A DNA stretch of 64,000 nucleotides from a virus (IMGVR_UViG_3300045747_000505); one strand, 5' to 3'; counted from the first letter of the stretch, positions 22,817 to 38,391 are shown. The notes: generated by a model not told the origin, from the letters alone. Numbers and translations: made by a program.

Positions 22817-22891
22817 GCGTCGTTAGCTCAATGGTAGAGTACGGGCCTCTAAAACCCAGGGTTATCGGTTCGATCCCGATACGACGCACCA
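22817..22891 (+). tRNA. tRNA-Sup(CTA), amber suppressor with a Lys-like body
   Basis: GCGTCGT/ACGACGC acceptor, loop CT-CTA-AA, TTCGATC T-loop, A73, CCA. Confidence 0.85.
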
Positions 22892-22912
22892 CCTCTTTTC
22901 AAGGAACCCAAA

Positions 22913-23206
22913 ATGTCTCTCTACGATCGCATGCCCCGCACGTCTGGCGAGAACATCGCCAACCGTCTCGCCTCGCAGAAGCTGAGCACCGACATGTGGG
23001 TGGGCAAGTTCGACAAGTGGCCTGATGGCTGCGGTGTTCGCAACGCCTCGCTCGCCCTCGGCAAGTGGATGGGCCTGTACGAAGCGCTCGGTCAGATTCA
23101 GCCTGAGCTGATCACGCAAGAGATGCAAGCCACGATGCGCGTCTACGCTGACGCCTGGGAGCGCATCGAGAATGTTCCACTTCGCCAGTACGAGCGGCTT
23201 GCGTGA
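22913..23206 (+). CDS. Hypothetical protein
   Basis: SD AAGGA, typical codon usage. Confidence 0.65.
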   Translation: MSLYDRMPRTSGENIANRLASQKLSTDMWVGKFDKWPDGCGVRNASLALGKWMGLYEALGQIQPELITQEMQATMRVYADAWERIENVPLRQYERLA

Positions 23207-23770
23207 AGGGTCTCAGTCCACTCGGCCTCGTCAAGGATCATCACATTGATCGAGGTCCGTGGGCGATTCGAATTGGGCAGATGCTGAAGGACGTTGGGCG
23301 ACAAGTGTTGCCCATCTCGAATCAAACGGTGCTGCCGGTGCTGACTGACATCGTCGAGGACGAGTTCGTTGCCACCGTGCCAACGATCGACAAGCACGAA
23401 GTTGGATTTCAAATTGGGGACATGGTGCTACCAAATGATTGAAGTCATCAAAGCAAGAGACAAGGCCGTGTGGAAGGTCAAGCTCGACAAGAAGCTGGTC
23501 GGTGAGATTCGCTTTCTCAATCCAGGCTTTCAGTACTTTCCGCGTGGCTCGAAGGAGGGTGGCGGTGTGCTGCCCTCGCTGAACGCCGTCATCAAGTCGC
23601 TCGAGGACTATTCCTGAACCTAAACAAATCGATGTACAAGTCCTAAGGACAGTGTACAATAGGAACTGTTGAGAAGCTCACAGTGGTGAGCAGTATCTTA
23701 GATAGTTGGCATAGACCGGGACCCCGTTGTCGCCCAGCCACAAACGACGACATCAACTAGTGAGATGATC

Positions 23771-24151
23771 ATGTAGATCCGCACTTCCAAAACCTACCTC
23801 TACGCAATCACACGCCGCGATCTCCCACTCGCGCAACAGGCTGTTCAAGCTGGCCACGCCGCCATTGAGCACGCTTACCAACATGGTCGTCCGCACGATC
23901 ATCATCCGTCGTACATCAAGCTGACGACGCGAGACAAGGCCGCTCTTCTCGAGCTTCAGGCCACGCTTGCCACGCACGGCATTCAAACCGCAGAATTTCA
24001 CGAGCCATACAAAGCTTGGGGCCTCACCGCAATCGCCTGTCTTCTCGGCGAGGAACAACGCTGTCTGTTACGACAGTTACAGCTTTGGACCACGCAGAAT
24101 GCTCAGGTTCGTGATACAATGGACACATCAACCACTCGGAGTTTCTCATGA
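23771..24151 (+). CDS. Pth2-type peptidyl-tRNA hydrolase-like protein with an in-frame TAG at codon 2 (not in the ORF track)
   Basis: Manual translation M*IRTSKTYLYAITRRDLPLAQQAVQAGHAAIEH...FHEPYKAWGLTAIAC; ends in an ATGA overlap with 24148. Confidence 0.75.
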
Positions 24152-24627
24152 CTCATCCCCTCGTTACCAAGTGCCTCGCCGCTCAGGCCGAGGTCGACAG
24201 CATCGTAGCCCTGCTCAAGGGAAATAGCAAGCACCAGATCGACATCATGAAGGAGCTCATCGAGCGCGCCGACATGCCCGAGATCAAGCTGGACAAGCGC
24301 TTCGCTGGTCTCTTCAGCTACGACTACATCGAGATCGAGGTCTCCAGCGCTGGCCGCGCCTCCTTCAGTGTCTGGGAGGATGCCTACGCCGATATCCCGG
24401 AGGAGAACGTCGGTGAGTTCGACCTCAGCGAGCACATCCTCGACGGTCGTGACGACGACTTCCGGCTCGAGTACGAAGCCTACGTGGCTCGGATCGCCGA
24501 GGCCTTTCGTGAGCGCGCGTGGATTCAGCGCGACGCCGAGATCGCTCGTGCTCGCGCCACCCTCGACCAGCTCGAGCGGCAGCGCGAAGCCATCATCGCC
24601 CACGGCCCCATCAGGATCAAGTCATGA
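24148..24627 (+). CDS. Hypothetical protein
   Basis: SD GGAG; promoter inside the 3' end of the Pth-like gene. Confidence 0.7.
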   Translation: MTHPLVTKCLAAQAEVDSIVALLKGNSKHQIDIMKELIERADMPEIKLDKRFAGLFSYDYIEIEVSSAGRASFSVWEDAYADIPEENVGEFDLSEHILDGRDDDFRLEYEAYVARIAEAFRERAWIQRDAEIARARATLDQLERQREAIIAHGPIRIKS

Positions 24628-24870
24628 ACCTCGCCGAAGCACAAGCCGCCCACAAGGCTGCGATCGACCTGCGAACCGAGCTGTGGCGCCGGGTTCCCAA
24701 GACCATTCAACTACCCGACTGGCGCGATGAGGGTGAGTTCGACACCTTCGAGCTGTACCACATCGACGCCATTGGTCTGACGGCCAGCTATCGCATGTAC
24801 ATCGGTCGCAATGAGTACGACTACTCTGCGGCCCAACCAATCATCCTCACCGAGCTCTTCAAGGACTGAC

Positions 24871-25344
24871 ATGACCACCTTCACCATCATTCACCTCACG
24901 CCGGCCTCGAACAGGGACTGGAGCGGCGAAGATCAGAGCTACATCACTCAAGAAGCTCAGACCCGAATCGACATCACACGCGTCATCGAGCGCGCGGCCG
25001 ACTTCTGGATGGACGGCATCAAGAAGGCCGGCCATGAGAAGAACACGTTCATCCTCATCAACGGTCGCGAGCCCGAGGACTATCCCTACAACCAGGACGT
25101 GGACGTCAACGACTACCTCGACGATGACCCCTACACTCCCGAGGAGCTGGGCGACTACGCTACGCTTCGCGCCATTGTGAACGCAAAGGTCGACGACTGG
25201 AAGGCCGAGAAGGCCGCAGCTGAAGAAGCCGAACGTCAACGCCTCGCAAATCTGGCTGCTGCAAAGGCTCGTCAAATCGCTCAGATGCAGCGTGACAAGG
25301 ACGAAGCCGACTTTCAGCTGCTCAGGCGCAAGCTGGGCAAGTGA
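24871..25344 (+). CDS. Hypothetical protein with coiled-coil C-terminus
   Basis: SD AAGGA before the ATG at 24871. Confidence 0.6.
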   Translation: MTTFTIIHLTPASNRDWSGEDQSYITQEAQTRIDITRVIERAADFWMDGIKKAGHEKNTFILINGREPEDYPYNQDVDVNDYLDDDPYTPEELGDYATLRAIVNAKVDDWKAEKAAAEEAERQRLANLAAAKARQIAQMQRDKDEADFQLLRRKLGK

Positions 25345-36331: not shown

Positions 36332-37015
36332 ATGATTCTTGCGGACTTGAAGCCATCGACATCTCGCACGACGTTTATTGAAACGTGGCTTTGTGAAATG
36401 CCAAGTGGTCTTGGCACATTCGAAACTTTCGAGACGCTGGAGTATTCAATCAAGGACTTTCTGAAGTACGGCATCAAGGTTGTCAACGTCAATGGCGTCA
36501 ACAAGATTGATGCTGGCGACAAGGTCTTCTACTGGTTCGAAGCCAACGGGAGCATTCAGCTCGCAACGGAGCTTCATAAAAAATCAGAAGGGCTGGTCGT
36601 CAGTCTTACTGGTAAGAATCCAAAGCTTCGAGGAAGAGCACCATACGCAAGCGAGCTGTACTCTGTCGTGCTAAAGGACTCTGGTAAAAACATTCGACTG
36701 ATGTCTGACACGCAGCTAAGCGACGAAGGTCTTGCTCTTTGGAAGAAGCTCGTTAAGCAGGGCCATAAGGTTTCTGTTTATGACGCAGCCAATCCAGGCA
36801 AATCATTCAAGTCATTTGAGACGCCAGCCGAGCTTGATGCGTTCTTCAAAGATGGCGATACGAATTTCAAGCGTTTTCAATATGTTCTCTCAGAAGAGCT
36901 GCTGAGCTACTGCTCGATGCGAGCAAGCTTTAGACTTCGTTTGCTGAGAGAAACGGTTGGTCATGATTTGACTGACGCACCAAATCCCGTAAGGGTGCCG
37001 TCGAGCTTGGCTTGA
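36332..37015 (+). CDS. GNAT-like phage protein (paralogue 2)
   Basis: SELY...LMSDTQLSDEGLALW; ATAAATA at 36301. Confidence 0.5.
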   Translation: MILADLKPSTSRTTFIETWLCEMPSGLGTFETFETLEYSIKDFLKYGIKVVNVNGVNKIDAGDKVFYWFEANGSIQLATELHKKSEGLVVSLTGKNPKLRGRAPYASELYSVVLKDSGKNIRLMSDTQLSDEGLALWKKLVKQGHKVSVYDAANPGKSFKSFETPAELDAFFKDGDTNFKRFQYVLSEELLSYCSMRASFRLRLLRETVGHDLTDAPNPVRVPSSLA

Positions 37016-37331
37016 CGTCTAGCTAAACTGAGAAGCGACAAGAAGCTCATGCGCAGGCCGGCTGTGAGTGAAAGCCTTAGGGAAGGGGCTAGCGAGAAGG
37101 GTCAAAGCCCTTCAACACCCATTTGGTAAGAGTATGATGTGCTCTTACCAAATGGTCAAGATGGCTTAGCGGCTACACACGTGTCGCGACGGATGGCTCT
37201 GTCGGTCGTGGCTTTGCGAAGACAATGTGAAGCTCCCAAGAGTAAGATGAGCATGAGGGAGCACTTGACCATTCATAATTTGCCACCCTACCCAAGGGGT
37301 CCGAGAGAGTGGTTGGAAGCATCTCGGCGAG

Positions 37332-37406
37332 TATTTCACGTAGCTCAATAGGCAGCAGCACCGCTTAGTATGGCGGGGATGCGGGTTCGAGCCCCGTCGT
37401 GTAATC
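37332..37406 (+). pseudogene. Degenerate tRNA (no CCA, distorted anticodon loop)
   Basis: TAGCTCAATAGGCAGCAGC D-arm remnant and GCGGG-TTCGAGC-CCCGT T-arm. Confidence 0.5.
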
Positions 37407-37423
37407 GTGGCATTCAATTCCAT

Positions 37424-37501
37424 CTGGGCGTAGTGTAGTCTGGCCAACATCCTCGGTCCGGAACCGATAGATCGCAGGTTCGAATCCTGCCGCCCAGACC
37501 A
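37424..37501 (+). tRNA. tRNA-Pro(CGG)
   Basis: Near-copy of the 33238 tRNA with loop TC-CGG-AA; CCA. Confidence 0.9.
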
Positions 37502-37722
37502 ATTCAAGAAAACGGGACCAAGGCTGCGAGGTAAGCTCTTGCTGCCAAGGTCCCGGGTTGTAAATATCCTGAGACGTGCCGATACACCATCGTAGGCCGT
37601 CCCAACGTACACGATTGCTCTATGGTCGCCGCAAGCGTCACGTGAGCGATAGGACAGGAAGGTGCAACCATCTATTCAATTGCAACTTGAACATTCAATT
37701 GCAACTTCAACTGGAGGACAAC

Positions 37723-38391
37723 ATGAAGTGTATACTTGAAGTGCGCGCCGCGGAAGGCGGCGATGATGCGAAGCTCTTCGCAAAGGATCTTGCTGCGGCC
37801 TACGGTCGCATGTTCAGCCGCTTCGGCTGAAAGCATCGCCTGCTAGATTCTCGTCAAGGCGAGATCTCGTTAGAGGTCAGCGGCGAGGATTTGACAGGCT
37901 TGCGACAAGAGGCTGGTGGTCATCGCATCATGCGGGTTCCACCAACCGAGCGTAAGGGTCGCGTTCACACTTCAACGGTGACGGTCGCCGTGCTCGACGA
38001 GGCGAAGGCCTCCAGCATCGAGTTCAACGACCGTGACTTTCGCGTCGAGTGGTACTCTGGCACCGGTGCTGGCGGACAACACCGCAACAAGCATCAGAAC
38101 TCGTGTCGCATCACGCATCGCTCAGGAGCGGTGGCTACGGCTCAGTGTCGTAGTCGCGAGAACTCTCTGGCCGAGGCGACGATTGCGATACTGGCACGGT
38201 TGAATGGAGCGGAGCAAGCGTCATCAGCGCTGGCACGGTCGCTCGACCGAAAACAACAAACTGGCAGTGGTGAGCGTGGTGATAAAATACGCACCTACCG
38301 CTTTCAAGACAACTCGGTCAAGGACCATCGCACCAACAACAGCGCGGCTCTCGACATTGTCCTCAACGGCAAGTTCGATCTGCTTTGGTAA
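37723..38391 (+). CDS. RF1-like class I peptide chain release factor lacking domain 1, with in-frame TGA at codon 36
   Basis: LEVRAAEGGDDAKLFA, RVPPTERKGRVHTS (PxT), GAGGQHRNK (GGQ), KIRTYRF...DHR. Both halves are in one frame across the TGA at 37828-37830. Confidence 0.88.

Follow-up and report, generated by a model that had tools for sequence, protein, structure and literature searches.

We analysed a 64,000-nt stretch of DNA from a virus (IMGVR_UViG_3300045747_000505), called the window below when its whole length is meant, in which genes of translation-related proteins are interrupted early by a conserved in-frame stop codon, here called a gate. Our results indicate that two separate programmed stop-codon gates are probably at work, one that would need a suppressor tRNA encoded by the phage and another that would depend on the leakiness of UGA. 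The first gate stands before a gene with the fold of peptidyl-tRNA hydrolase 2 (PTH2) and recurs in a retained start further downstream, while the second interrupts a gene encoding a class-I release factor (RF). An earlier account, referred to as the sequence-only reading, had joined an amber-suppressor tRNA, a PTH2-like gene, a short leader open reading frame (ORF) and an RF1-type factor into one translation-rescue circuit. Its stop-gated logic stood, in that three genes were found to have conserved in-frame stop gates; the union of the four parts in one circuit found no support.

The stretch comes from an uncultured jumbo phage with the standard genetic code, and all confident genes of the window lie on the + strand. 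Megablast against GenBank phages returned a tRNA-Leu match only and no close relative of the window DNA. Relatives were found in IMG/VR using two window proteins as queries; many contigs matched, and they include complete genomes of 330-520 kb with terminal repeats.

A suppressor tRNA beside a PTH2-like gene with an amber gate

The suppressor tRNA expected at 22817 was identified by ARAGORN and matched the Rfam tRNA model at 60.1 bits. It is a cloverleaf tRNA (22817-22891, +) with the anticodon CUA, complementary to the amber stop codon, an encoded CCA end and discriminator A73. The corresponding tRNA of a relative (L008) agrees with it in the acceptor stem, and the changes in its anticodon stem are compensatory. 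A promoter-like motif detected by pattern search, GTGTATAATAG (22788-22798, +), lies approximately 20 nt upstream of the tRNA. Its general form, GTGTAYAATAG, has three matches in the window against 0.46 expected, and these precede tRNA(CUA) (22788), the PTH2-like gene (23652) and a large tRNA array (30926), which suggests one promoter class for all three. On the other side of the motif, at 21884-22302 (+), ARAGORN and Rfam (RF01850, 140.6 bits; RF04321, 125.3 bits) reported a permuted, two-piece tmRNA of the betaproteobacterial type with the tag ANEANFRLAA. A tmRNA often adjoins the suppressor tRNA and PTH2 genes in the relatives as well, and the type found in the window points to a betaproteobacterial host.

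The PTH2-like gene was described in the sequence-only reading as opening with ATG-TAG, and this held true. The gated start reads ATG ATC ATG TAG (23765-23776, +; gate at 23774-23776) and is followed by a coding region of 123 aa (23777-24148, +) that has no start codon of its own, as its frame contains no ATG, GTG or TTG before codon 114. The arrangement is conserved: in about 25 distinct relatives an ATG is followed by 0-7 codons, TAG and then directly by the conserved K-x-Y-L-Y core. The codon after the gate varies among these relatives (ATC, ATT, GTT, ACA, AAC), and a purine (A or G) always stands immediately 3′ of the gate. Of the 25 distinct TAG-gated loci, 20 have one or two tRNA(CUA) genes no more than 5 kb away. 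Two PTH2 loci are gated by TGA, and the tRNA near both of them has the anticodon UCA.

The assignment to PTH2 comes mainly from structure. The AlphaFold2 model of the protein (pLDDT 86) was compared with the Protein Data Bank (PDB) by Foldseek, and 14 of the top 15 matches were PTH2 structures, the exception being an uncharacterised Agrobacterium protein (2gax). Archaeal and eukaryotic PTH2 proteins (PF01981; PDB 3erj, 1q7s, 2zv3, 1wn2, 1xty) share the fold with TM scores of 0.55-0.72 and a probability of 1.0, and the phage protein has a similar N-terminal strand-helix motif; it differs from them in that its sequence similarity stays under the Pfam threshold. Nine of 19 relatives matched the Pfam PTH2 family at E<0.1 (best 0.0021), the alignment of the phage family (A1) has 27 invariant columns, and its profile found no match among PDB sequences. 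The PTH2 fold is evident in the model, and peptidyl-tRNA hydrolysis is a putative activity.

Gated PTH2-like genes are present in cultured jumbo phages too. Yersinia phage fHe-Yen9-04 has one that opens with ATG TCT CAC TAG and Acinetobacter phage ME3 one that opens with ATG ACT TAG, each with an annotated CTA tRNA nearby. In Xanthomonas phage XacN1 the PTH2-like domain is ungated and forms part of a longer annotated ORF.

A second gated gene with an HD domain

The leader ORF reported at 25398 upstream of another gene is present in the window. A conserved motif (ATAGCATTAGTTGGCAAATAAGGAA) is followed by ATG ATC TAG at 25398-25406, the whole retained region spanning 25365-25406 (+). A frame of 28 codons continues behind the TAG (25407-25490, +) and ends in a TGA that overlaps the ATG at 25487 of the next gene. 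That gene (25487-25873, +) encodes 128 aa of unknown function. We first favoured chance as the origin of the leader, as five relatives have the downstream gene and no leader. This was reversed by a whole-genome comparison of all stop-to-stop ORFs of the window and of two complete relatives, one with a CUA suppressor (G003) and one with a UCA suppressor (G005). Just downstream of the PTH2-like gene, both relatives carry a second gated gene, with a ribosome-binding site (RBS), ATG, one to three codons and a stop, which is TAG in G003 and TGA in G005. Among the ORFs of the three, a conserved gate after a short leader with an ATG was clear only for the PTH2-like gene, this second gene and the RF gene.

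In relatives the second gene encodes 185-215 aa and is TAG-gated in about 18 distinct loci; by tblastn synteny the counterpart of the 128-aa gene lies directly downstream of it. Its alignment (A2) shows invariant residues H27, H76-D77, H98 and D123, which form an H..HD..H..D motif. The structural model (pLDDT 89.8) best matched the HD domains of CC- and A-adding tRNA nucleotidyltransferases (TM 0.53-0.60), and the motif and the HD fold together mark the product of the relatives' gene as a putative HD-domain phosphohydrolase, for which Pfam gave no match. As the motif upstream of ATG-ATC-TAG in the window aligns with the 5′ regions of this gene in relatives (alignment A3), the leader is, by this comparison, the retained gated start of an HD gene that has lost its body; the A2 profile found nothing in the six frames of the window.

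Two observations concern the vicinity of the retained start. The upstream motif (..GCATTAG..CAAATA..; 25365-25390 in the window) is inverted (..TATTTG..CTAATGC..) in several relatives (loci L179, L181, L192, L196 and L200), and this independence of orientation suggests a protein-binding site rather than a promoter. In addition, contigs of two metagenome runs (X1 and X2) match the window to the right of about 25357 and differ from it to the left; this position, just upstream of the retained leader, is apparently a recombination breakpoint.

An RF1-type release factor gene interrupted by UGA

The third gated gene (37723-38391, +) has 222 codons, a strong Shine-Dalgarno (SD) sequence, GGAGGA, and a TAA stop, and its product carries the motifs PPT and GGQ. 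It was claimed to be an RF1-type factor gated by an in-frame TGA, and the domain and family comparisons, for which the TGA was read as Trp, led to the same conclusion. Pfam identified PCRF (3.3e-24, profile positions 101-194, the second half only) and RF-1 (3.6e-17). Among relatives of solved structure the best match is E. coli RF1, aligned over residues 111-340 with 1e-42, compared with 1e-23 for RF2. The first residue of the phage protein corresponds to residue 111 of E. coli RF1, such that the N-terminal domain 1 is absent.

We aligned 81 genes of this family, that of the window and 80 IMG/VR relatives at 58-70% protein identity, with lengths of 220-226 aa. GGQ is present in 81/81 and PPT in 79/81, and the family motifs Gln, PPT, HTS and GGQ are those of RF1. 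The gate at codon 36 (37828-37830, +), which aligns with a conserved Trp of RF1, is TGA in all 81 genes. The remaining two or three Trp codons of these genes are always TGG, and the codons flanking the gate vary. The TGA is followed by A in 58 genes, by G in 17 and by C in six, and never by T. All RF genes displayed have a strong SD. The 35 residues upstream of the gate carry invariant residues of RF domain 2, and the first possible start past the gate in the relative G003 is codon 109. Because the residues before the gate are conserved and the next start comes so late, the two halves must presumably be joined in a single polypeptide through in-frame readthrough. Being of the RF1 type, the factor should not recognise its own UGA gate.

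Several other ways of passing the gate were considered. A +1 frameshift of the prfB type was ruled out, as both parts are in the same frame and GGN precedes the stop. RNAalifold found no consensus structure after the gate, where the mean folding energy is -15.1 kcal/mol compared with -12.0 +/- 3.9 kcal/mol elsewhere in the gene; the missing consensus hairpin makes selenocysteine unlikely and disfavours a structured stimulator. No opal suppressor that could read the gate was found within 3 kb of the 80 RF loci or in the CUA genome G003.

Gating of release factors appears to recur at other sites outside the clade of the window: a 636-kb uncultured phage (LR756504.1, L174) has a distant RF-like gene (37% identity) with one in-frame stop at about codon 44. 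The RF-like gene of another huge phage (LR756511.1) has no in-frame stop. Directly upstream of the RBS of the RF gene in the window, a 15-nt direct repeat, ATTCAATTGCAACTT, which holds the palindrome CAATTG, occurs twice, 19 nt apart (37674-37707); it is not conserved, being present in 2/75 relatives. Just upstream of the gene there is also a weak tRNA-like gene (37334-37406; Rfam 35.8 bits) with an anticodon loop of 8 nt, which ARAGORN reported with a four-base anticodon, AGUA; the gene lacks a CCA end, and its acceptor stem contains one mismatch.

The amber gates and the release factor gate are separable

Across the relatives, gate and anticodon change together in both the PTH2-like and the HD gene, TAG with CUA and TGA with UCA, and at the PTH2 loci no pair was seen that did not match. 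In CUA and UCA phages alike, the RF gate is TGA (81/81). The two modules, PTH2 with the suppressor and the RF, co-occur on at least ten contigs; in ten such contigs, nine combine CUA with TAG gates and one combines UCA with TGA gates, and the RF gate is TGA in all ten. All five complete genomes that bear the RF gene have a suppressor (three CUA, two UCA). The PTH2-like gene was undetected in three of the five (G001, G002, G004), and no gated gene was found beside their suppressor tRNAs within the short flanks examined. Conversely, the PTH2 and suppressor module was found without the RF in G006 (100% complete) and G007 (94% complete). The sequence-only reading had proposed to check whether the stops are conserved and co-occur with CUA tRNAs; conservation was observed for all the gates and the association with CUA tRNAs for the amber gates, but the TGA of the RF gene proved independent of the suppressor.

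In the single circuit that had been proposed, UGA leakiness would yield the RF1-type factor, which would compete with tRNA(CUA) at UAG and turn the amber-gated genes off, forming a timed or homeostatic negative loop. It is well established that RF1 and amber suppressors compete at UAG. The motifs of the family are those of RF1, a reader of UAG and UAA, and all parts are present in one window and recur together on the co-occurrence contigs. Nevertheless, the RF gate is the same in CUA and UCA phages, and the predicted RF1-type factor of UCA phages, no opponent of a UCA suppressor, cannot compete with it at all. Complete genomes carry either module alone, the host already supplies RF1, and the RF of the window itself has lost the conserved Gln. 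As the RF gate is constant regardless of the suppressor anticodon and the modules are separable, the single circuit, with the phage RF shutting the amber-gated genes, is unsupported, and we regard it as unlikely. Cross-inhibition between RF and tRNA(CUA) is possible in CUA phages such as that of the window; the comparison of genomes gave no sign that it is a selected function.

Proposed mechanism and alternative explanations

According to the two-gate model, the suppressor module would comprise the tmRNA, tRNA(CUA), the PTH2-fold gene with an RBS, ATG and TAG within four codons, and the retained second gated start. Initiation at the ATG would give a tiny peptide unless the suppressor tRNA of the phage, presumably charged and active, reads the stop. 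The gate would thereby make the output of the PTH2-like and HD-like enzymes, which may both act on tRNA, probably at the 3′ end, proportional to suppressor activity. The full RF would be made only upon readthrough of UGA. Here near-cognate tRNA-Trp is the likely source of the inserted residue and would restore the native one; in relatives with a UCA suppressor, that tRNA could also read the RF gate. The presumed purpose of this second gate is that host RF2 and readthrough would compete at it and so determine the RF level.

Several observations weigh against this model. When compared with 319 other phage tRNAs, tRNA(CUA) showed no clear isotype, and its anticodon stem in the window has two C-A mismatches. 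The TAG-gated loci L180, L192/L193 and L207 have no tRNA(CUA) within 5 kb. The match of the window protein to Pfam PTH2 (PF01981) is sub-threshold (E=0.015; 15.9 bits versus a cut-off of 23). About 12 codons past its gate the HD gene encodes a conserved Met, at which translation could reinitiate. CUA phages such as G003 have neither tRNA-Trp nor tRNA(UCA), such that the RF gate would need near-cognate reading by the host, and near-cognate reading of UGA is normally rare. Finally, codon 70 of the RF gene (37930-37932) encodes Met in the window, where 80/81 genes have Gln before PPT. The Gln that precedes PxT in RF1 structures presumably helps to read the third base of the stop codon, and the Met variant may alter the specificity of the window RF at this base.

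The stops might not be read through at all, each short leader being terminated and the enzyme made by reinitiation or from a non-canonical start, independently of the suppressor. Regulatory short leader ORFs are well known, and the internal Met of the HD gene would suit such a scheme. On the other hand, the HD residues between the gate and this Met are conserved, a residue upstream of it is invariant, and the stretch is modelled within a confident helix that begins before the Met. In the PTH2-like genes no canonical start codon (ATG, GTG or TTG) occurs upstream of the conserved core and the post-gate codon varies, and reinitiation does not predict that the gate codon follows the anticodon of the neighbouring tRNA. 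We therefore consider this explanation very unlikely. No sensing would be involved if the gates served only to keep toxic products very low, with readthrough as a constitutive background leakage. An RF that lacks domain 1 and a hydrolase of tRNA esters could indeed be harmful in excess, and no tRNA encoded by CUA phages could read the UGA of the RF gene. Yet strong SD sequences precede the gated starts, where a weak SD would be a simpler way to lower the output, and the match between gate and anticodon argues for dependence on the suppressor. A purine-rich context 3′ of a stop favours readthrough, and such a context follows the gates. Taken together, these points make mere leakage highly improbable.

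The stops could also be sequencing or assembly errors, or marks of decaying pseudogenes, for which nothing speaks beyond their bare presence in frame. Contigs from pond and wetland metagenome runs showed no differences from the window at the three gates, with X1 covering the leader and the RF gate, X2 the PTH2 and RF gates, and X3 the PTH2 gate and the leader. X1 and X2 are possibly the source samples, leaving the X3 contigs, with the PTH2 gate and the leader, as the independent ones. In X4, a diverged strain lacks three bases immediately behind the PTH2 gate, a deletion that keeps the frame. The stops are shared by 80/80 RF relatives, in none of which a sense codon replaces the TGA, and by about 25 PTH2 relatives, with the protein sequences conserved. 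Two of the findings that would have undermined the sequence-only reading, sequencing errors and sense codons in relatives, were thus not encountered, and the error or pseudogene explanation has practically no probability left.

A more far-reaching interpretation treats the stop codons as regulatory wires: the suppressor would license tRNA-repair and tRNA-recycling enzymes, UGA leakiness would report on RF2 and set the RF level, and in CUA phages the RF would feed back on amber suppression. This would amount to a self-contained network controlling translation termination during infection, and we assign it a low probability.

Relation to known systems

A literature search retrieved no published description of either gate. 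The RF gate resembles the control of prfB, the gene of RF2, in that a conserved UGA lies early in a release factor gene and the yield of full-length protein depends on termination there. The differences are that prfB uses a programmed +1 frameshift, whereas the frame of the phage RF gene is unchanged and the stop replaces a Trp; that the phage factor is of the RF1 type, so that it would be a sensor of RF2 instead of providing self-feedback; and that no SD-like stimulator or consensus downstream structure was found at the phage gate. If it operates as proposed, this would be a second kind of release factor control, which uses termination efficiency as prfB does, but via readthrough and across factors. 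The RNA phage Qbeta likewise exploits low-level reading of UGA by tRNA-Trp, making the longer A1 readthrough protein. There, the product is a C-terminal extension of a functional coat protein, whereas the phage RF gene would give a 35-residue fragment without readthrough, and Trp would restore a core residue.

Phages with recoded stop codons (TAG as Gln, TGA as Trp) also encode suppressor tRNAs and release factors, RF1 or RF2, and suppression is proposed to switch on a set of their genes; the genes for the code change are themselves written in the standard code (bioRxiv 10.1101/2021.08.26.457843; PMC13037316). In contrast to them, the phage of the window is not recoded, with TGA and TAA ending 70/74 genes and one in-frame stop in 64 kb, and its suppressor would have two or three dedicated, adjacent targets among tRNA and translation enzymes rather than late structural or lysis genes. 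Suppressor tRNAs with CUA or UCA anticodons also belong to the large tRNA sets of cultured jumbo phages that use the standard code. The authors who described Xanthomonas phage XacN1 could not identify target genes of its suppressor tRNA (PMC5852040), and those who described Agrobacterium phage Atu_ph07 name no specific target (PMC6102473). For the lineage of the window candidate targets can be named: the suppressor tRNAs of standard-code jumbo phages gain natural candidates in the adjacent PTH2-fold and HD-domain genes, whose gate codon changes with the anticodon. The question is testable in the cultured phages fHe-Yen9-04 and ME3, where the PTH2-like gene is gated likewise. All of these gated genes are missed or truncated by gene callers, and phage annotation pipelines consequently under-report them.

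Genetic code and other genes of the window

The 74 called genes are terminated by TGA (44 genes), TAA (26) or TAG (four). We scanned coding potential around every stop in the window, and the TGA at 37828 was the single stop in a coding frame without a start directly behind it, indicating that the genome is not recoded. Genome-wide recoding (code 15 or code 4) was rejected on the same count of one internal stop in 64 kb and on the use of TGA by 44/74 genes. Three of the four TAG-ending genes are ORFs with low GC content at third codon positions (GC3) inside the tRNA array (30203-30808, 35146-35796 and the unannotated 31840-32475), the former two being GIY-YIG endonuclease-like. In the sole core gene with a TAG terminator, a TGA three codons further on would serve as a back-up. 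The rarity of TAG terminators and this back-up stop are consistent with an active amber suppressor.

In total, ARAGORN and Rfam reported 27 tRNA genes in addition to the permuted tmRNA. An array of 26 tRNA genes (31357-54626, +) includes neither tRNA-Trp nor tRNA(UCA). Homing-endonuclease-like ORFs are interspersed in the array (Pfam GIY-YIG): the low-GC3 ORFs between tRNA genes comprise the two GIY-YIG ORFs given above and one at 33451-34089 that is DUF559-like or restriction-endonuclease-like. Rfam tRNA matches at 34968-35098 (131 nt) and 38923-39072 (150 nt) far exceed the length of a tRNA, which suggests tRNA genes with large insertions. Along with the tmRNA, the sequence-only reading had listed a CCA enzyme in the window, and both were found there, the latter as a tRNA nucleotidyltransferase of the CCA-adding enzyme or poly(A) polymerase family (59720-60838, +; Pfam PolyA_pol head domain, 2.6e-19).

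Auxiliary genes include a nucleotidyltransferase-NUDIX fusion resembling nicotinamide adenine dinucleotide (NAD)-salvage proteins (8134-9279), a papain-family protease (40303-41118), a NADAR domain protein (41263-41688), a protein with a PEP-CTERM sorting motif (44171-44848) and a D-Ala-D-Ala carboxypeptidase (53253-54098). A conserved ORF at 51301-51750, with counterparts in G003 (108923-109273) and G005 (230858-231256), has a conserved part that begins well upstream of the first ATG, GTG or TTG. In the window the first canonical start is at codon 37, and an in-frame TAA precedes the ORF in all three genomes. These ORFs could use a non-canonical start, a frameshift or a TAA gate; we saw no tRNA(UUA) that would match such a gate. 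Similarity to relatives also begins upstream of the first canonical start codon at 44895-46016 and at 27812-28420. The latter gene overlaps the preceding ORF (27636-27875) by 64 nt, and a programmed frameshift is possible there.

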